Source: Vectrevirus T205P5. Taken from it: DNA of 43,663 nucleotides. A program made the position numbers and the translations under genes. Position 1 is the stretch's first letter. Every line of letters starts with the position of its first letter. The stretch lies in the sequence record OZ035792.1; one strand, 5' to 3'. This document shows positions 2,680-13,914 of the stretch, one piece after another. The notes under the pieces were generated by a model. The model made no database searches, had not been told where the DNA came from, and saw only the letters and a list, made by a program, of their open reading frames with translations.

Positions 2680-2970
2680 ATGGCTAAATATGGTACTACA
2701 GGTTCTGTTACGGGTCAGGCTTTTCGAGTGAAAGCAGTACAAACTATTGCAACGGCAATTCCTATGCCTGTTGTTAAGGAAGCAGACCTTAAGAAGAAAG
2801 ACCACCCTATCAACATCAAGCATTTATCAGGTAAACAGAAAGGTGCAATGGTTGCTCTTGAGAAAGGTGACACAACCTTACATATTGCTGTTGCACGTGG
2901 TAGTGAACCCACAGACCCTTGGGATGTAACTGGTATGGAAGAGGACGCTGTTACTCCAGCAGGGGAATAA
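2680..2970 (+). CDS. Hypothetical protein, paralog B of a tandem pair
   Basis: AAGGAGG RBS; contains LSGKQKGAMVALE...LHIAVA, paralogous to 2383-2661. Confidence 0.5.
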   Translation: MAKYGTTGSVTGQAFRVKAVQTIATAIPMPVVKEADLKKKDHPINIKHLSGKQKGAMVALEKGDTTLHIAVARGSEPTDPWDVTGMEEDAVTPAGE

Positions 2971-2975
2971 TAATA

Positions 2976-3320
2976 ATGCTTAATAAATACTTCAAGCGTA
3001 AAGAGTTTGCTTGCCGTTGTGGCTGCGGTACATCCACTGTTGATGCTGAATTACTACAGGTAGTCACAGATGTGCGTGAGCACTTTGGTTCTCCTGTAGT
3101 TATCACTTCGGGGCACCGCTGTGCTAAGCACAATGCTAATGTAGGAGGAGTTAAGAACTCCATGCATCTTACTGGTAAGGCTGCTGACATTAAGGTACGA
3201 GGCATCTTACCTTCTGATGTACATAAGTATCTTACTGATAAGTACCAAGGCAAATATGGGATTGGTAAGTATAACTCCTTTACTCATATTGATGTACGTG
3301 ACGGGTGTGCACGATGGTAG
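2976..3320 (+). CDS. Endolysin, peptidase M15 family (zinc peptidoglycan peptidase)
   Basis: SGHRCAKHN...D...FTHID gives the H-x-D ... H zinc-binding signature of M15 peptidases; about 114 aa; next to the spanin genes. Start taken at an internal ATG. Confidence 0.7.
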   Translation: MLNKYFKRKEFACRCGCGTSTVDAELLQVVTDVREHFGSPVVITSGHRCAKHNANVGGVKNSMHLTGKAADIKVRGILPSDVHKYLTDKYQGKYGIGKYNSFTHIDVRDGCARW

Positions 3321-3996: not shown

Positions 3997-5895
3997 ATGG
4001 CTAAATTAACCAAACCTAATACTGAAGGAATCTTGCATAAAGGACAATCTTTGTATGAGTACCTTGATGCGAGAGTTTTAACATCAAAGCCGTTTGGTGC
4101 TGTAGGTGACGCCACTACTGATGATACGGAGGTTATAGCTGCTTCATTAAACTCTCAGAAAGCTGTCACAATCTCAGACGGTGTATTCTCTAGCTCTGGT
4201 ATTAATAGTAATTACTGTAACTTAGACGGTAGAGGTAGTGGGGTGCTAAGTCACCGTTCCAGTACAGGTAACTACTTAGTATTTAACAATCCACGTACAG
4301 GTCGCTTAAGTAATATTACGGTAGAAAGTAATAAGGCGACTGATACAACTCAGGGACAGCAGGTATCTCTTGCCGGTGGAAGTGATGTTACTGTAAGTGA
4401 CGTTAACTTCTCAAACGTTAAAGGTACTGGTTTCAGTTTAATCGCATACCCTAATGATGCGCCACCTGATGGACTTATGATTAAAGGCATTCGAGGTAGC
4501 TATTCCGGCTATGCTACTAATAAGGCAGCCGGATGCGTACTTGCTGACTCCTCAGTTAACTCCCTCATAGATAACGTCATTGCTAAGAACTACCCTCAGT
4601 TCGGAGCAGTAGAGTTGAAAGGTACAGCCAGTTACAACATAGTCAGTAATGTTATAGGGGCAGATTGCCAGCATGTAACTTACAACGGCACCGAAGGGCC
4701 AATAGCTCCTTCTAATAACCTTATCAAGGGGGTGATGGCTAATAACCCTAAGTATGCAGCGGTTGTTGCAGGCAAAGGAAGTACGAACTTAATCTCAGAC
4801 GTGCTTGTAGATTACTCAACTTCTGATGCTAGGCAGGCTCATGGTGTTACCGTAGAAGGGTCTGATAACGTCATAAATAATGTGCTTATGTCAGGATGTG
4901 ATGGTACTAACTCTTTAGGACAAGGGCAGACCGCTACAATTGCACGCTTTATAGGTACAGCTAATAACAACTATGCGTCTGTATTTCCTAGCTACAGTGC
5001 TACAGGTGTTATTACTTTCGAATCCGGCTCTACCCGTAACTTCGTAGAGGTAAAGCACCCTGGCAGGAGAAACGACCTTCTCAGTTCTGCTAGTACTATT
5101 GACGGTGCAGCTACTATTGACGGCACTAATAATAGTAACGTAGTACACGCACCTGCATTAGGGCAGTACATAGGTAGTATGTCAGGTAGGTTCGAATGGC
5201 GGATTAAGTCCATGTCACTCCCTTCAGGCGTTCTTACTTCTGCTGATAAGTACAGAATGCTTGGGGATGGTGCTGTATCATTAGCTGTAGGTGGGGGTAC
5301 TTCTTCTCAAGTTCGCCTATTTACTTCTGATGGTACTTCTCGGACAGTGGCCCTCACCAACGGTAACGTGCGTCTTTCTACCAGTAGCACAGGCTATTTG
5401 CAGTTAGGTGCTGATGCAATGACCCCAGATAGTACTGGTACATACGCATTAGGTTCCGCCAGTCGAGCATGGTCTGGCGGTTTTACTCAAGCAGCATTCA
5501 CTGTTACCTCAGATGCTAGGTGTAAAACAGAACCTCTTACTATCTCAGATGCCTTACTGGATGCTTGGTCTGAAGTTGACTTTGTGCAGTTTCAGTATTT
5601 GGATCGTGTTGAGGAGAAGGGTGCAGACTCAGCTAGATGGCACTTTGGCATCATCGCTCAGCGAGCTAAGGAGGCTTTCGAACGTCACGGTATAGATGCA
5701 CATCGCTATGGCTTCTTGTGCTTCGACAGTTGGGATGATGTATACGAGGAAGATGCCAATGGCTCTCGTAAACTGATTACACCAGCAGGTTCCCGCTACG
5801 GTATTCGTTACGAGGAAGTGCTGATATTAGAGGCTGCGTTGATGCGGAGGACTATTAAGCGTATGCAGGAAGCACTAGCTTCCCTGCCTAAGTAA
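3997..5895 (+). CDS. Tailspike 1: right-handed beta-helix polysaccharide lyase-like depolymerase with C-terminal self-cleaving intramolecular chaperone domain (K5-lyase/KflA-like)
   Basis: AGGAGA RBS before the internal ATG (MAKLTKPNTEG); pectate-lyase-type N-terminal motif FGAVGDATTDDTEVIAAS; C-terminus matches the peptidase S74 chaperone domain of endosialidase-type tailspikes. KflA assignment is from recall, not a search. Confidence 0.85.
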   Translation: MAKLTKPNTEGILHKGQSLYEYLDARVLTSKPFGAVGDATTDDTEVIAASLNSQKAVTISDGVFSSSGINSNYCNLDGRGSGVLSHRSSTGNYLVFNNPRTGRLSNITVESNKATDTTQGQQVSLAGGSDVTVSDVNFSNVKGTGFSLIAYPNDAPPDGLMIKGIRGSYSGYATNKAAGCVLADSSVNSLIDNVIAKNYPQFGAVELKGTASYNIVSNVIGADCQHVTYNGTEGPIAPSNNLIKGVMANNPKYAAVVAGKGSTNLISDVLVDYSTSDARQAHGVTVEGSDNVINNVLMSGCDGTNSLGQGQTATIARFIGTANNNYASVFPSYSATGVITFESGSTRNFVEVKHPGRRNDLLSSASTIDGAATIDGTNNSNVVHAPALGQYIGSMSGRFEWRIKSMSLPSGVLTSADKYRMLGDGAVSLAVGGGTSSQVRLFTSDGTSRTVALTNGNVRLSTSSTGYLQLGADAMTPDSTGTYALGSASRAWSGGFTQAAFTVTSDARCKTEPLTISDALLDAWSEVDFVQFQYLDRVEEKGADSARWHFGIIAQRAKEAFERHGIDAHRYGFLCFDSWDDVYEEDANGSRKLITPAGSRYGIRYEEVLILEAALMRRTIKRMQEALASLPK

Positions 5896-7858: not shown

Positions 7859-7987
7859 ATGCTGAAAGATGGTTGGGTTTCATATGACCCTACAGACCCT
7901 AAGAATTGGCTACAGGTTATCGCTATAGCTTGTGCAGGTAGCCTATTGGCTGCCCTGATGTATTCATTATGGATGTACACAAAGTAA
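7859..7987 (+). CDS. Small membrane protein (42 aa), hypothetical
   Basis: Strong AAGGAGG RBS 6 nt upstream; hydrophobic helix LQVIAIACAGSLLAALMYSLWMY. Confidence 0.4.
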   Translation: MLKDGWVSYDPTDPKNWLQVIAIACAGSLLAALMYSLWMYTK

Positions 7988-8154
7988 CCAAAGTCAAAAT
8001 TTTGATGTAGGCGTGTGTCAGCTCTCTCGCCCTCGCCCTCGCCGGGTTGCCCCCCATAGGGTGGCCTGAGGGAATCCGTCTTCGACGGGCAGGGCTGATG
8101 TACTCCTTCGCTAGTACAAGGGAGGCGGAGGGAGCGCCTAGGGAGGCCTAGGAA

Positions 8155-8445
8155 TGGCTTAGTGGTGGACAAGGTGATTACCTTAGTGAAGCCTCTTAGT
8201 GCATTCCTGAGGCCATTCAGGGCGTTTATGAGGTATTGACAGGGTGGATGGGCGTGGGCTATCTGTTCGTTTCGTTCACTCCGCTTGCGCTCCGTTCACT
8301 CGCTCACGTGTACCTTAGGTTATTACTTGATGGATAGCTTAGGTTAACCTTAGTGGAATGCCTTAGTTAAAGACTTAGTGCTTATCTTAGTAACAGCTTA
8401 GTAGTGTACCTTAGTTGGTCTTAGTGAATAGCCTTAGTGATTGCA
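8155..8445. repeat. Array of CTTAGT(G) short direct repeats in the genome-terminus region
   Basis: At least 13 copies of (C)CTTAG(T/G) at about 10-14 bp spacing (densest 8313-8440), in non-coding sequence between the right-end and early genes; resembles the CCTAAAG repeat array near the T7 left end. Confidence 0.7.
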
Positions 8446-8635
8446 CATGCAAGCATGTAAGATGCCAATAGGTCGCGGTCGGTAGACCGCTAAAGAAAGA
8501 GAATAGTAATAAGATGCAGTAGGAGGAACACCAGAAACCTAGCCAACCTAGCCTATCCTAGCTCTGTATCTATTGCTTTTCCTTAGTCTAACATGTGAGA
8601 CAACCTAGATTTATCTTAGTGATGATATCTTAGTG

Positions 8636-8664
8636 TTGACAAGGCCATCTCAATATAATACTAT
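8636..8664 (+). promoter_or_regulatory. Candidate host sigma70 early promoter
   Basis: TTGACA, 17-nt spacer, TACTAT; about 140 nt upstream of the first early gene. Confidence 0.3.
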
Positions 8665-8807
8665 TCATCACGTAGGCAGCACTGAGGTGCTTAGTAGCCA
8701 GCTAGTAAGGCATACGAAGAGACTAGCGCTTACATTGCTCTTTAACAATTTGCTTAGTGTAACCTATGTATGCCGTGGTTAATTACTTATTGAATGAGGG
8801 ATTAACT

Positions 8808-8987
8808 ATGACATTAAACAACCGTGAACTATCCGTTCTCTTCACTCTGTTGTGCTACATGATTCGTAACAACGAATTGCTTACAGATGACGAGTTGGCA
8901 CTGTATCACCGCTTTCTTAACGAAGGTTGGACCGATACAGTTAATCAATACCGTAACATGATAGATGAGTTGAGGGAGGGTAAATAA
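8808..8987 (+). CDS. Early hypothetical protein
   Basis: GAGGGA RBS before the internal ATG of ORF 8766-8987; first gene after the terminal region. Confidence 0.4.
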   Translation: MTLNNRELSVLFTLLCYMIRNNELLTDDELALYHRFLNEGWTDTVNQYRNMIDELREGK

Positions 8988-9211
8988 TGTATCAACATGA
9001 GGTATTCTTTGAATCAGCTAGCGAAGCTATTCGCTTCCGTGATGATATGATGCAAGCTGGTGTAGGCGTTGATGTGTATCACTATTTGATAGATTACGAC
9101 ACTGAATATCACCGAGTTACCTTAGTATCTGAGTATGACAACCAAGTCATTACTGAGTATCTAGGCAGTGAAGATTACGATTACGATGAAGTAATCACGA
9201 CAAATCTCTAA
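8987..9211 (+). CDS. Early acidic protein (74 aa), hypothetical
   Basis: GGAGGG RBS; start overlaps the upstream stop; strongly acidic, ending SEDYDYDEVITTNL. Confidence 0.45.
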   Translation: MYQHEVFFESASEAIRFRDDMMQAGVGVDVYHYLIDYDTEYHRVTLVSEYDNQVITEYLGSEDYDYDEVITTNL

Positions 9212-9219
9212 ATTAACTG

Positions 9220-9248
9220 TTGACAGCCACGGCATACAAGGTTACATT
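9220..9248 (+). promoter_or_regulatory. Candidate host sigma70 early promoter
   Basis: TTGACA, 17-nt spacer, TACATT, in an early intergenic region. Confidence 0.3.
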
Positions 9249-9340
9249 AAGCATCAAGACGGCGACGTCTTTAAACATCCTGCTCTTTAACAATACGGTT
9301 TGTGTCTTGATAGGCTAACTAACTAACTAAGGTAATTATC

Positions 9341-9451
9341 ATGAAAGGTTTAATTTGTGTAGAACGTATGGTCAATGGTAAACTTGAAATATTACCACTG
9401 GAAAACCAATCTAGCTTCAAAGAGTGGTATGGCTGTTTCTCACTGATTTAA
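9341..9451 (+). CDS. Small early ORF (36 aa), hypothetical
   Basis: TAAGGT RBS; fills an early intergenic gap; no homology recognised. Confidence 0.25.
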   Translation: MKGLICVERMVNGKLEILPLENQSSFKEWYGCFSLI

Positions 9452-9602
9452 GGTAAAGGCTGGCACTAGTCAGCCTATCAAGGCGCAAACCAAGCTCTTT
9501 AACAATTTGGATGGTAGCTTCTTAGTCTGGATAGGTTAAACCTAGGAGATTCTCTTGAGTCTCCTATAATGTAACCTAACTAACTAAATGAGGATTAATA
9601 AC

Positions 9603-9959
9603 ATGGCTATGTCTAATATGACTTACTCTCAGGTTTACAACACCGCTCATGCTGCATTAGTTGAACGTATCTGGAATGATGCTATTGAGTGTATCGATAA
9701 CGCACATGATGCAATCCATGAGGTAGCGGACAGTGCTGTACCAATTTATTATGCTGACATCTTCTCAGTGATGGCGAGTGAAGGCATTGATCACTTCTTC
9801 GAAGACTCCGGCCTGATGCCAGATACTAGGGATGTAACGGTCGTACTACAAGCCCGTATTTATGAACAACTCACCATTGATTTATGGGAACGTGTTCAAG
9901 ATATGATTGTTGCGTACACCAATTACGCTGAGGATTCAGAAGAAGAAGAGGAAGAATAA
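9603..9959 (+). CDS. ocr: Ocr (gp0.3-like) DNA-mimic anti-restriction protein
   Basis: [47 protein letters not shown] closely matches T7 Ocr as recalled; polyacidic C-terminus; GAGGA RBS before the ATG at 9603. Confidence 0.88.
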
Positions 9960-10065
9960 GGATGGAAAAGCAATATAACTTTATCTTTTCAGACGGTGTA
10001 ACCCTGAAGTGTTCCCTACGATTCGCACAAATTCGTGAGGAAGTACTAGGCACTACATACAAACT

Positions 10066-10090
10066 ATTTAGCTGACACTATAAGAGAAGG
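10066..10090 (+). promoter_or_regulatory. Variant SP6-type promoter-like sequence (TATAAGAG) in the early region
   Basis: ATTTAGCTGACACTATAAGAGAAGG; A replaces G at the predicted start site. Confidence 0.35.
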
Positions 10091-10151
10091 CTTAACAAGG
10101 CGTTGCTACGGTAGCGCCTGATTAAACTTTCACTTACTAGAGGTTAAGATT

Positions 10152-10277
10152 ATGAAACTATCGCCATCCGCTAAAGGCCTCATTGCAGAACTTAAAGACT
10201 CTTTGAGGAATCCAATCATTTGGGCACTTATCTACATACCTTATGGTATCTACCTATTTCACCTCATCACTGAGTAG
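10152..10277 (+). CDS. Small membrane protein (41 aa), hypothetical
   Basis: GAGG RBS; hydrophobic IIWALIYIPYGIYLFHLI. Confidence 0.3.
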   Translation: MKLSPSAKGLIAELKDSLRNPIIWALIYIPYGIYLFHLITE

Positions 10278-10311
10278 CTAGCCTATAGCCTACCTGAGTG
10301 GGCTATGTGAT

Positions 10312-10333
10312 ATTTACTTACACTATAAGGTGA
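10312..10333 (+). promoter_or_regulatory. Variant SP6-type promoter-like sequence (TACACTATAAGG)
   Basis: ATTTACTTACACTATAAGGTGA directly upstream of the 294-aa early gene; deviates from the consensus at two positions. Confidence 0.3.
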
Positions 10334-10338
10334 TTAAT

Positions 10339-11223
10339 ATGACTACTGAAAACATCCTTCTGTCTGTTCGTGAAGCTGCAACCGCTGAAATCAAGCAGCA
10401 CTTAGACAATATCGGCACTTCTTACATCAAAGTTGGCGCTTGTCTGAATGAATTACGCGGTGATTTCGAAGGTCAAAAAGACTTTTTAGCTTATGTAGAA
10501 TCAGAGTTCGGCATCAAGAAGGCACAATGCTACAAGCTGATGAGTGTAGCCCGTGTCTTTGAAGGAGACGAACGCTTTAAAGGTGTGGCTATGCGTGTAA
10601 TGCTGGCGCTTGTTCCTTTCGCTGATGAAAATATCATCATGGAGAAAGCCGCAGAACTTGCCGCAGCGGGCAAGCTGGACACTAACGCCGTGAACGCCCT
10701 GATTGAGCCTAAGAAAGAGCCAAAGTCTGAGACGGTACAATCCAAGGCTGAGCCTGTAAAACCGCAGGAGAACGCGACTGCGGCCGCAGAATCCCAGGAA
10801 ACGCAAGCGCCGCAGGAAGTGCCGCCAGCAAGTGAGTCGGATGACGACAAATCAGCACCGTGGGAAGAGGAAAGCAAGCCGGAAGCGCCAAAGGCCGCGC
10901 CACTGGACAACACGGCTAACACTGAAAACGCCGCTATGGCTGGCCTACTGGCACAAATTAAGGCACTGACTGAGCAATTACAGGCAGCTAACGACCGCAT
11001 CGCCGCCCTAACCAGTGCACGTGAAAGCAAGAAGGCAGCCGCGCCTATGCTTCCCCAATTCAAATCTAAATGTTTCTATGCTCGCTTGGGTTTAAGCGCT
11101 GAGGAGGCAACGAAGAAAACAGCAGTTAACAAGGTACGCCGCGAACTGGTTAAGCTAGGCTATGGTGAAGGCCATGAAGCATGGGCCTTAATCTCTGAGG
11201 CAGTAGAAGAATTAACTAAGTAA
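10339..11223 (+). CDS. Early protein (294 aa) of unknown function, in the gp0.7 position
   Basis: AAGGTGA RBS; globular N-terminal domain, acidic Pro/Ala/Glu-rich linker, C-terminal coiled coil; directly precedes the RNAP gene; no kinase motifs seen. Confidence 0.6.
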   Translation: MTTENILLSVREAATAEIKQHLDNIGTSYIKVGACLNELRGDFEGQKDFLAYVESEFGIKKAQCYKLMSVARVFEGDERFKGVAMRVMLALVPFADENIIMEKAAELAAAGKLDTNAVNALIEPKKEPKSETVQSKAEPVKPQENATAAAESQETQAPQEVPPASESDDDKSAPWEEESKPEAPKAAPLDNTANTENAAMAGLLAQIKALTEQLQAANDRIAALTSARESKKAAAPMLPQFKSKCFYARLGLSAEEATKKTAVNKVRRELVKLGYGEGHEAWALISEAVEELTK

Positions 11224-11286: not shown

Positions 11287-13914
11287 ATGCAAGACTTACA
11301 CGCTATTCAACTTCAACTTGAAGAAGAAATGTTTAACGGCGGTATCCGTCGCTTTGAAGCGGACCAACAGCGCCAGATTGCATCCGGTAATGAATCAGAC
11401 ACGGCATGGAATCGCCGCTTATTGTCCGAGTTAATCGCGCCAATGGCTGAAGGTATTCAGGCATACAAGGAAGAGTATGAAGGTAAAAGAGGCCGTGCAC
11501 CGCGTGCATTAGCTTTCATTAACTGCGTAGAAAACGAAGTGGCAGCATATATCACGATGAAAATCGTTATGGATATGCTGAACACGGATGTAACCTTGCA
11601 GGCTATAGCCATGAATGTAGCTGACCGCATTGAGGACCAAGTACGTTTTAGCAAGCTGGAAGGTCACGCCGCCAAATACTTTGAAAAAGTTAAGAAGTCA
11701 CTTAAGGCAAGTAAGACTAAATCATATCGCCATGCGCACAACGTAGCGGTAGTGGCTGAGAAGTCAGTAGCTGACCGTGACGCTGATTTCTCCCGCTGGG
11801 AGGCATGGCCTAAAGACACCTTGCTGCAAATTGGGATGACCTTGCTTGAAATCTTAGAGAATAGCGTATTCTTCAACGGGCAACCTGTCTTCCTCCGCAC
11901 CTTGCGCACTAATGGCGGCAAACATGGTGTTTACTACCTACAGACTAGTGAACACGTAGGTGAGTGGATAACTGCATTTAAAGAACATGTAGCGCAACTT
12001 AGTCCAGCCTATGCACCTTGCGTTATTCCTCCGCGTCCGTGGGTATCACCCTTTAACGGTGGGTTTCATACTGAGAAAGTAGCAAGCCGTATTCGTCTGG
12101 TAAAAGGCAATCGTGAGCACGTCCGCAAGCTGACCAAAAAGCAAATGCCAGCGGTTTACAAGGCTGTTAACGCTTTGCAGGCGACTAAGTGGCAGGTTAA
12201 TAAAGAGGTTTTACAGGTTGTGGAGGACGTTATACGTCTAGACCTCGGCTATGGTGTACCTTCCTTTAAACCACTCATCGACCGTGAGAACAAGCCAGCT
12301 AATCCGGTGCCGTTAGAGTTCCAGCACCTGCGAGGCCGTGAACTGAAAGAAATGCTTACGCCGGAACAATGGCAAGCCTTTATCAACTGGAAAGGTGAAT
12401 GTACTAAGCTGTACACCGCTGAAACTAAGCGCGGAAGCAAATCGGCGGCAACCGTTCGCATGGTTGGTCAGGCCCGTAAATATAGCCAGTTCGACGCAAT
12501 CTACTTCGTGTATGCACTGGACAGCCGCAGCCGTGTATACGCGCAATCTAGCACACTCTCACCGCAATCAAATGACTTGGGCAAGGCCTTGCTCCGTTTT
12601 ACCGAAGGGCAGCGTCTTGATAGCGCTGAGGCGCTTAAGTGGTTTTTGGTGAACGGGGCTAATAACTGGGGTTGGGATAAGAAAACTTTTGACGTGCGCA
12701 CCGCTAACGTGCTGGATAGTGAATTTCAAGACATGTGCCGCGACATTGCAGCGGATCCGCTGACCTTCACTCAATGGGTAAATGCCGATTCCCCTTATGG
12801 CTTCCTTGCATGGTGCTTTGAATATGCGCGTTATCTGGATGCACTGGATGAAGGCACGCAAGACCAATTCATGACGCACCTACCCGTCCATCAAGACGGC
12901 AGTTGCTCTGGTATTCAGCACTATAGCGCGATGTTACGCGATGCAGTAGGTGCGAAAGCAGTAAACCTTAAGCCTTCTGACTCTCCTCAAGATATTTATG
13001 GTGCCGTTGCGCAGGTAGTAATTCAGAAGAATTATGCATACATGAATGCAGAGGATGCGGAAACCTTCACTTCTGGCAGCGTGACTTTAACAGGTGCGGA
13101 GCTGCGTAGTATGGCTAGTGCGTGGGATATGATAGGAATCACTCGCGGCCTGACCAAAAAGCCCGTAATGACACTACCTTATGGCAGCACACGTCTAACC
13201 TGCCGTGAGTCAGTGATTGATTATATCGTTGATTTAGAAGAAAAAGAGGCCCAACGGGCTATTGCGGAAGGGCGTACCGCCAATCCTGTACACCCTTTTG
13301 ATAATGACCGTAAGGACAGCCTGACACCTAGCGCAGCTTATAACTATATGACAGCTTTAATCTGGCCTTCTATTTCGGAAGTGGTTAAAGCTCCTATAGT
13401 GGCAATGAAAATGATTCGTCAGCTTGCACGTTTCGCAGCTAAAAGGAATGAAGGCTTAGAGTACACCTTGCCTACTGGCTTCATCTTGCAACAAAAGATA
13501 ATGGCGACAGATATGCTCCGCGTATCTACTTGCTTGATGGGAGAAATCAAGATGAGTCTACAGATTGAAACGGACGTAGTGGATGAAACGGCTATGATGG
13601 GCGCTGCTGCCCCTAACTTTGTGCACGGTCATGATGCCAGTCACCTTATCTTAACGGTCTGCGACCTTGTTGATAAAGGGATTACATCTATCGCAGTAAT
13701 TCATGATTCTTTTGGCACTCATGCAGGTCGCACCGCAGACCTACGTGATAGTCTAAGGGCAGAAATGGTGAAGATGTATCAAGGCCGTAACGCTCTGCAA
13801 AGCCTGTTAGATGAGCATGAAGAACGCTGGTTAGTAGACACCGGAATCCAAGTGCCAGAGCAAGGAGAGTTTGACCTTAACGAAATCTTAGTATCTGACT
13901 ATTGCTTCGCATAA
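11287..13914 (+). CDS. Single-subunit DNA-dependent RNA polymerase (T7 gene 1 family)
   Basis: 875 aa; matches T7 RNAP motifs as recalled (PWxxxx[25 protein letters not shown]-terminal DYCFA). Confidence 0.97.

Follow-up and report, generated by a model that had tools for sequence, protein, structure and literature searches.

Why should a phage carry the same 13 bases three times in its early region, each time just ahead of an early gene? The question is raised by Vectrevirus T205P5 (sequence record OZ035792.1), in which the sequence GCTCTTTAACAAT is found, as an exact match and always on the + strand, at positions 8737-8749, 9282-9294 and 9494-9506 of the 43,663-base stretch of DNA that was analysed (here called the window). 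The source is an SP6/K1-5-like phage and not T7, being approximately 95% identical to K1-5 and LI10P5, and the window is permuted such that the early region begins near 8000. All three copies lie in non-coding gaps, 59 nt ahead of the ATG at 8808, 47 nt ahead of the ATG at 9341 and 97 nt ahead of the ATG of ocr at 9603. These positions had been reported in an earlier note on this DNA and are confirmed here; the same note suggested that the copies may be sites at which RNase III processes the early transcripts, with host-promoter or protein-binding roles also possible. The answer that we favour is a different one. The 13-mer is probably a boxA of the type found in ribosomal RNA (rrn) operons, acting in the nascent early RNA that is made by the host RNA polymerase, and we refer to the three copies as boxA1, boxA2 and boxA3.

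The identification comes from direct comparison with known elements. All three copies agree with the leader boxA of the Escherichia coli rrnB operon at 13/13 positions (317-329 of the rrnB record L002, inside cacTGCTCTTTAACAATTTatc) and fit the gamma-proteobacterial boxA consensus GYTCTTTAANA (PMC5725501). The 13-mer is also identical to the single boxA of T7 (nt 813-825), which lies between the early promoter A3 (750) and gene 0.3 (925). According to PMC3709561, which cites Savalia 2010, the T7 boxA is an anti-termination element downstream of the early promoters, and its mutation makes Gp2, the inhibitor of host polymerase, dispensable. Given the identity of the sequences, the phage copies would be expected to be bound by NusB-S10, and it is in this form, as a site in RNA, that the protein-binding role raised in the earlier note may survive. 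The statistical signal is the presence of three exact copies: a given 13-mer is expected approximately 0.002 times in the window on the basis of its base composition, and the 13-mers present three or more times fall into a few sequence families, which include the phage-polymerase promoters, a palindrome GTCTCACATGTGAGAC and GCTCTTTAACAAT itself. When up to two mismatches were allowed no further copies were found on either strand of the window, and at this setting a shuffle test was not significant (3 found against 1.57 expected). The copies and the elements predicted upstream of them are as follows.

8636..8664, + strand: predicted sigma-70 early promoter P1, TTGACA-17-TACTAT, with 10/12 consensus matches and a start near 8671; the same module is present in K1-5.
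8737..8749, + strand: boxA1 (GCTCTTTAACAAT, rrn-type boxA), at approximately +66 from the predicted P1 start.
9220-9248, + strand: predicted sigma-70 promoter P2, TTGACA-17-TACATT, found by promoter scan upstream of boxA2.
9256..9271, + strand: small hairpin AAGACG-GCGA-CGTCTT at the start of P2 transcripts; it lies 10 nt upstream of boxA2, where rrn leaders have boxB.
9282..9294, + strand: boxA2, at approximately +28 from the predicted P2 start.
9494..9506, + strand: boxA3, an exact match to GCTCTTTAACAAT.

The arrangement of these elements bears on whether the 13-mer acts in DNA or in RNA. P1, as predicted, lies upstream of boxA1 and P2 upstream of boxA2, and every copy is on the transcribed strand. 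The small hairpin upstream of boxA2 is kept in K1-5, ACG-C91 and mutPK1A2, and in the Citrobacter phage CrRp3 it has a GGGA loop. A role at the DNA level, whether within a host promoter or as the operator of a DNA-binding protein, from phage or host, that regulates early transcription, would be in keeping with the repetition of the motif near early promoters and with the presence in this phage of other repeated DNA sites such as the eight copies of GTCTCACATGTGAGAC. However, boxA1 and boxA2 lie 28-66 nt downstream of the predicted transcription starts and so do not occupy the place of a -35 or -10 element, and the promoter scan lists no site that makes use of the 13-mer. The motif is not palindromic, and all copies in all of the phages examined are on one strand and downstream of the -10 element and start site. 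Identity to the rrn element across phages of many enterobacterial hosts is also hard to reconcile with recognition by a phage-specific DNA-binding protein. The host-promoter role is not supported, a DNA-binding site is disfavoured, and we regard any DNA-level function as very improbable. A coding reading of the 13-mer was considered separately and rejected: two open reading frames (ORFs), 8633-8782 and 9220-9318, span the first and second copies, and both begin inside promoter hexamers, upstream of the predicted transcription starts.

What distinguishes these copies from an isolated boxA is the sequence that follows them. In an inverted-repeat search that covered 8600-9620 the strongest repeats all begin beside a boxA. 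The first of these, stem 1, brings together 8751-8778 and 9227-9253, which are complementary at 27/28 positions with one bulge (repeats I3 and I4; 8751-8765 pairs with 9239-9253 and 8767-8778 with 9227-9238). The second, stem 2, pairs 9297-9321 with 9467-9491 at 22/25 positions (repeat I1, 25 nt, 88%). Together with the genes that they enclose and the structure that follows boxA3, they occupy the region as follows.

8751..8778, + strand: 5' arm of stem 1, beginning 2 nt after boxA1; duplex energy -48.1 kcal/mol.
8808-8987 and 8987-9211, + strand: two small early ORFs enclosed by stem 1 (phrog_9275 and phrog_6403), both of unknown function.
9225..9253, + strand: 3' arm of stem 1, coinciding with the spacer and -10 of predicted P2; TTGAC is invariant in the stem 1 family alignment.
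9297..9321, + strand: 5' arm of stem 2, beginning 3 nt after boxA2; duplex energy -40.7 kcal/mol.
9341..9451, + strand: ORF of 36 codons enclosed by stem 2, without a family match.
9467..9491, + strand: 3' arm of stem 2, ending 3 nt before boxA3 and overlapping an alternative local hairpin at 9457-9476.
9522..9587, + strand: local hairpin in which an internal loop separates a lower stem from an upper stem of 10 bp (TAGGAGATTC/GAGTCTCCTA; z -3.9; repeat I10); a candidate for an RNase III site like R0.3 of T7.
9603..9959, + strand: ocr, a gene 0.3-like anti-restriction protein (phrog_2568, E 1e-47).

Since the spacer and -10 of P2 fall on the 3' arm of stem 1, only transcripts from P1 contain both arms of stem 1; boxA2 lies 29 nt past this arm. 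As a control for the duplex energies, 150 random 36-nt arms from the window were searched in an identical manner and gave a median of -26.6, a first percentile of -36.2 and a minimum of -39.3 kcal/mol, so that stem 1 is beyond all 150. Both long-range stems, together with the local hairpin before ocr, were predicted for the whole P1 transcript of 932 nt, in its minimum-energy fold and in its centroid fold alike (z -7.0; 0/20 shuffles folded as well). Structure prediction for the gaps taken singly, which had been proposed in the earlier note, gave weak scores for the first two gaps (z -1.1 to +1.3) and, for the gap before ocr, the hairpin at 9522-9587. A scan of 7900-11000 against Rfam at a permissive threshold returned only chance-level miRNA and snoRNA matches, with nothing at the 13-mer.

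Further support for the stems came from comparison with related phages. The early regions of 14 relatives, which were not chosen by structure, were compared: K1-5, ACG-C91, mutPK1A2, P433.1, CrRp3, SP6, the Salmonella phages Kenya-K30 and BP12B, the Klebsiella phages cp4 and VR702, the Proteus phage Pm5460, the Przondovirus K30, the Cronobacter phage Peggy and MR4. All 14, whose hosts belong to at least six genera, have between one and three copies of an invariant core, GCTCTTTAACAA (or GTTCTTTAACAA), always on the transcribed strand. K1-5 has the same three boxA copies, and SP6 has two exact copies with GATCTTTAACAAT ahead of its ocr. Each of the 14 has at least one boxA with an arm, starting at +1 to +3, that can pair with sequence 200-970 nt further downstream; these duplexes have energies of -33 to -53 kcal/mol, against -22 to -35 kcal/mol for the next-best ones. 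In the SP6-like relatives each boxA has a long-range stem except the last one, before ocr.

The two stems also show compensatory change. In alignments of distinct sequences, some of which came from a scan of IMG/VR, the stem 1 family has 29 pairs, with 97.3% of cells paired and compensatory changes at 13/29, and the stem 2 family has 24 pairs, with 95.4% of cells paired and compensatory changes at 12/24. For both families 0/500 shuffles matched the observed values, and shifted pairings were 20-43% paired. Individual cases can be read directly from the arms: GTATGCC/GGCATAC in the window corresponds to GTAAGCC/GGCTTAC in SP6, and TGCTTAGTGTAACCT/AGGTTACATTAAGCA in the window to TGGTTAGGTGTATTC/GAATACACTTAACCA in the Proteus phage.

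This conservation is relevant to another known use of boxA. At suhB, Nus factors bound to boxA control translation of the next gene by occluding its ribosome-binding site, and the phage copies could in principle act mainly in the same way: the distance from the end of boxA to the next ATG is 46 nt for boxA2 (ATG at 9341) and 58 nt for boxA1 (ATG at 8808), within or near the suhB-type range (PMC5725501). However, boxA3 ends 96 nt before ocr, and the conserved partner of boxA in the relatives is a duplex arm and not a ribosome-binding site. The phenotype of the T7 boxA mutant, as given in PMC3709561, concerns read-through by the host polymerase. Translational control as the main function therefore appears to us unlikely.

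The long-range stems also place the proposal of RNase III processing in a new light. The inverted repeats that had been noted around the copies do exist, GGCATAC (8709-8715) with GTATGCC (8768-8774) around the first and CCTATC (9474-9479) with GATAGG (9530-9535) around the third, but they had been mispaired, each being a fragment of a longer complementarity. GTATGCC lies in the 5' arm of stem 1 (8751-8778 with 9227-9253); the local GGCATAC is absent from most of the relatives, whereas the long-range partner is present in all of them. CCTATC is part of the arm 9467-9491, which pairs upstream with 9297-9321, and GATAGG pairs downstream inside the hairpin 9522-9587; relatives without CCTATC still have GATAGG.

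That the 13-mer is itself recognised or cut by RNase III would be in keeping with its position between early genes, where T7 has its RNase III sites, and with the short repeats around the first and third copies. RNase III, however, needs approximately two turns of duplex, and all three copies lie outside every conserved duplex, with boxA1 unpaired in the predicted folds, including that of the whole transcript. The sequence is identical to a known RNA element that is bound by protein in single-stranded form, the local repeat of the first copy is missing in most relatives, and both halves of the repeat at the third copy have better conserved partners elsewhere. We consider this explanation to be extremely improbable. 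What remains of the proposal, which is partly right, is the neighbourhood of the motif, where processing is likely, each copy being followed either within 1-3 nt by a duplex of 22-29 bp or after approximately 15 nt by a hairpin of the R0.3 type. Both kinds of structure are in principle good substrates for RNase III, and for the long-range stems it is the duplex length that suggests cleavage.

The third copy differs from the others in what follows it. The arm after boxA3 has no long-range partner (its best duplex, -26.0 kcal/mol, is near the random median), and approximately 15 nt after this boxA, just before ocr, the hairpin at 9522-9587 begins. Its lower stem is formed by UUAGUCUGGAUAGGUUA with UAACCUAACUAACUAA, and it has the layout of a T7-type site, intergenic and with lower stem, internal loop and upper stem in order, which the 13-mer itself does not have. 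The same architecture was found in 10 relatives by folding each sequence singly, with a conserved lower stem and upper stems that differ in sequence but are compensated. RNAalifold on a raw MAFFT alignment of these hairpins had given a poor consensus (-2.9 kcal/mol) in which the unrelated upper stems were misaligned, for which reason the sequences were folded one by one.

The arms of stem 1 and the lower stem of this hairpin share one sequence family, 8755-8766 corresponding to 9567-9578 (TAGTGTAACCTA and TAATGTAACCTA) and 9239-9249 to 9531-9551 (AGGTTACATTA and ATAGGTTAAACC; repeats I2, I6 and D8), and alternative cross-pairings between the two domains are therefore possible.

Comparison of the relatives also showed that the units bounded by boxA are mobile. 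The upstream flanks of boxA are often unrelated among relatives, and the downstream flanks fall into three recurring types. In CrRp3 (3119) the flank that precedes boxA2 in the window is fused to the one that follows boxA3; exactly the intervening 212-bp cassette is missing, and the junction lies at boxA. The cassette types of SP6 are in a different order, the same cassette type is found in K30 (Przondovirus), MR4 and Peggy, and the cargo between identical arms varies from one relative to another. The exact absence of a cassette in CrRp3 and the order of cassettes in SP6 suggest that cassettes have been gained and lost by recombination across the boxA repeats.

All of this could be taken to mean that the blocks of boxA and arm are mainly joints for the swapping of early genes and have no function in RNA. 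Homology between linkers would not, however, account for compensatory changes within each genome or for identity to the boxA of the host rrn operons, and the same geometry is kept with unrelated arms in the T5-like phage My1 and in two metagenomic contigs described below. Such an explanation has slightly more to recommend it than the other alternatives considered here and is nevertheless improbable; recombination at these blocks is more likely to be a by-product that is compatible with a role of boxA in the RNA.

The design of a boxA with an adjacent stem, built from unrelated arm sequences, was found in My1 and in the IMG/VR contigs L115 and L033. The pre-early region of Pectobacterium phage My1 (JX195166 6105-7155), in its left terminal repeat, contains three rrn-type boxAs (at 5804, 6108 and 6587 on the - strand of L126), of which two have arms at +1 that form long-range duplexes of -44.9 and -37.8 kcal/mol around small ORFs; the arms are mostly unrelated to those of the window. 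L115 (4207-5540) and L033 (2973-3800) contain repeated units of a sigma-70-like promoter, boxA, 5' arm, ORF, 3' arm and the next promoter, with duplexes of -46.9 and -38.9 kcal/mol. The cargo in L115 also includes a tRNA-like stretch. Neither contig gave a phage match in GenBank by megablast.

A related observation concerns contigs of lambdoid prophage type (L055, L093, L036, L022 and others) and phage SfIV (NC_022749, approximately 27.5-28.5 kb), in which an rrn-type boxA stands beside a cI-like repressor with a hairpin upstream. After this boxA comes TCTGGATATCC, whose complement GGGGATATCCAGAT lies 420-760 nt further on; their duplex is shorter, at approximately 14-17 bp, and its energies are nearer to background. 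The sequences suggest that SfIV-type lambdoid phages may have the same design more weakly.

How might these elements work together? By analogy with the rrn operons, NusB-S10 would bind each boxA and, with NusA, NusG and SuhB, would modify the host polymerase as it does there. The modified polymerase would be fast and would resist Rho and terminators through the leaders and tiny ORFs up to the phage RNA polymerase gene at 11287. Tethering of boxA to the polymerase would keep the neighbouring 5' arm close until the 3' arm emerges and would thereby favour the long-range duplex. RNase III would then cut the duplexes of 22-29 bp and the hairpin before ocr, freeing the mRNAs of the cassettes much as pre-16S rRNA is freed. 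With a new boxA past every 3' arm and internal promoter, the complex could reload; the rrn spacer boxA after the 16S stem has the same placement. Reloading of this kind is our proposed reason for there being three copies.

We tentatively extend this to a general scheme, which we hold to be possible rather than probable, in which the early operons that the host polymerase transcribes in SP6/K1-5-like phages are assembled from successive mimics of the rrn operon, the pre-early region of My1 and other phages perhaps having arrived at the same arrangement independently. Each unit would run, with the same measure of doubt, from a sigma-70 promoter through boxA, 5' arm, cargo ORFs and 3' arm to the next boxA, and RNase III would excise the cassettes co-transcriptionally. 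The boxA repeats might, as a no less provisional part of the scheme, also serve as joints for the gain, loss and exchange of cassettes.

Several findings weigh against these proposals. P1 and P2 are predicted from consensus matches only, of which the region has no more in total than shuffled sequences do. In the minimum-energy fold of the 932-nt transcript there is partial pairing of boxA2 and boxA3, and less of it in the centroid. One of the random control arms reached -39.3 kcal/mol, near to the value for stem 2. The IMG/VR rows of the alignments were selected on duplex energy, and the percentage of paired cells is inflated by this; the 14 relatives from GenBank were not so selected and all of them show the stems. 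The Vectrevirus relative P433.1 (2960-3160) has neither a boxA nor an R0.3-like hairpin before ocr and has instead a different leader with another TTGACA. The pre-ocr boxA can therefore be lost, and the element is to this extent dispensable. Finally, Nus factors have been reported to be largely dispensable for antitermination at rRNA in vivo (PMC4807359), and this bears on the balance between antitermination and RNA folding in the proposed mechanism.

It is this balance that gives the locus its wider interest. boxA is a known element and its T7 copy is known, so that the motif alone is ordinary. Less ordinary is that protein-coding phage cassettes stand between the arms of covarying long-range duplexes, each with a boxA immediately before its 5' arm, and that boxA is repeated three times in 0.9 kb. 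Full-text searches of the literature that was accessible gave no description of the triple boxA in SP6-like phages or of boxA-adjacent long-range duplexes around phage mRNA cassettes, although an earlier description may exist in subscription journals or in the original SP6 and K1-5 genome papers. Whether the Nus factors act at rrn operons mainly in antitermination or in co-transcriptional folding of RNA by looping is a matter of debate, and a small phage operon, amenable to genetics, that copied the rrn design would make the question directly testable through mutants of boxA and of the arms. If the proposal is right, these phages would offer a natural system, compact and mutable, in which to test the looping (RNA chaperone) model of boxA in the rrn transcription complex. 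The result bears too on the annotation of early regions in SP6-like therapeutic phages, on the likely ends of their early mRNAs and on the mosaicism of early cassettes.

Two other features of the window were noted in passing. The 16-bp perfect palindrome GTCTCACATGTGAGAC has eight copies in the window when up to two mismatches are allowed (0.04 expected), at 8586-8601, 13989, 14171, 14971, 16382, 17526, 22622 and 39188. One of these is 35 nt upstream of the -35 of P1, and the palindrome resembles a repeated hairpin or site of DNA binding. Downstream of ocr and of a 37-codon ORF, 10063-10115 contains a sequence like a phage-polymerase promoter (gctgacactataagagaagg) followed by a GC-rich hairpin (aaggcgttgctacggtagcgcct), and this may be the point at which the phage polymerase takes over. 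No boxA was found in the window past it.

Among the systems with which the locus can be compared, the nut sites of lambda are alike in having a boxA in an early phage transcript, and the boxA of lambda recruits NusB-S10 to the host polymerase for processive antitermination. The lambda element is a shorter variant, CGCTCTTA. The phage studied here uses instead the full rrn sequence, with small hairpins upstream of boxA as in rrn. Downstream of boxA1 and boxA2 there is a long-range arm, and downstream of boxA3 the sequence is unpaired until the large hairpin; no boxB of the lambda kind is found there.

There is also a resemblance to T7. T7 has the identical 13-mer on the same strand, with host promoters before it and a local hairpin and ocr after it, and boxA3, the hairpin at 9522-9587 and ocr together reproduce the T7 layout; the T7 region from boxA to gene 0.3 folds alike. 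The place of the copies ahead of ocr and of the phage polymerase gene likewise agrees with the T7 early region. T7 has one boxA after three promoters, whereas this phage has three copies, two of them with long-range stems. No long-range partner was found for the arm downstream of the T7 boxA (the best duplex, -29.1 kcal/mol, is close to the random range), nor was any inverted repeat. The T7 hairpin downstream of boxA we take to be the RNase III site R0.3, cut near nt 890 (Dunn and Studier 1983), and it is not annotated in the T7 records that were fetched. The hairpin at 9522-9587 resembles T7-type RNase III sites in its layout, in its position just before ocr and in its compensated upper stems. 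Stems 1 and 2 are unlike such sites, being long-range and nearly perfect in the manner of rRNA processing stems, and they would probably be cut on both strands.

The rrn operons themselves can be compared in the same way. The search that found stems 1 and 2, when applied to E. coli rrnB, recovered the known 16S processing stem (329-364 with 2012-2049 in L002, -53.2 kcal/mol), the 5' arm of which begins at the last base of boxA; the spacer boxA, GCTCTTTAAAAAT at 2323, lies downstream of the 3' arm. The phage and the E. coli rrn operon thus have in common the 13-mer, a 5' arm 0-3 nt past boxA, its duplex of over 20 bp with a 3' arm on the far side of the cargo, a further boxA downstream of that arm and a small hairpin just upstream of boxA in the position of boxB. 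They differ in that no boxC-like sequence identity was seen in the phage beyond a GT-rich arm and that the cargo is 0.1-0.4 kb of protein-coding mRNA in place of 1.5 kb of rRNA. The phage has, moreover, three units in approximately 0.9 kb, and in the first of them the 3' arm also supplies the spacer and -10 of the promoter that follows.

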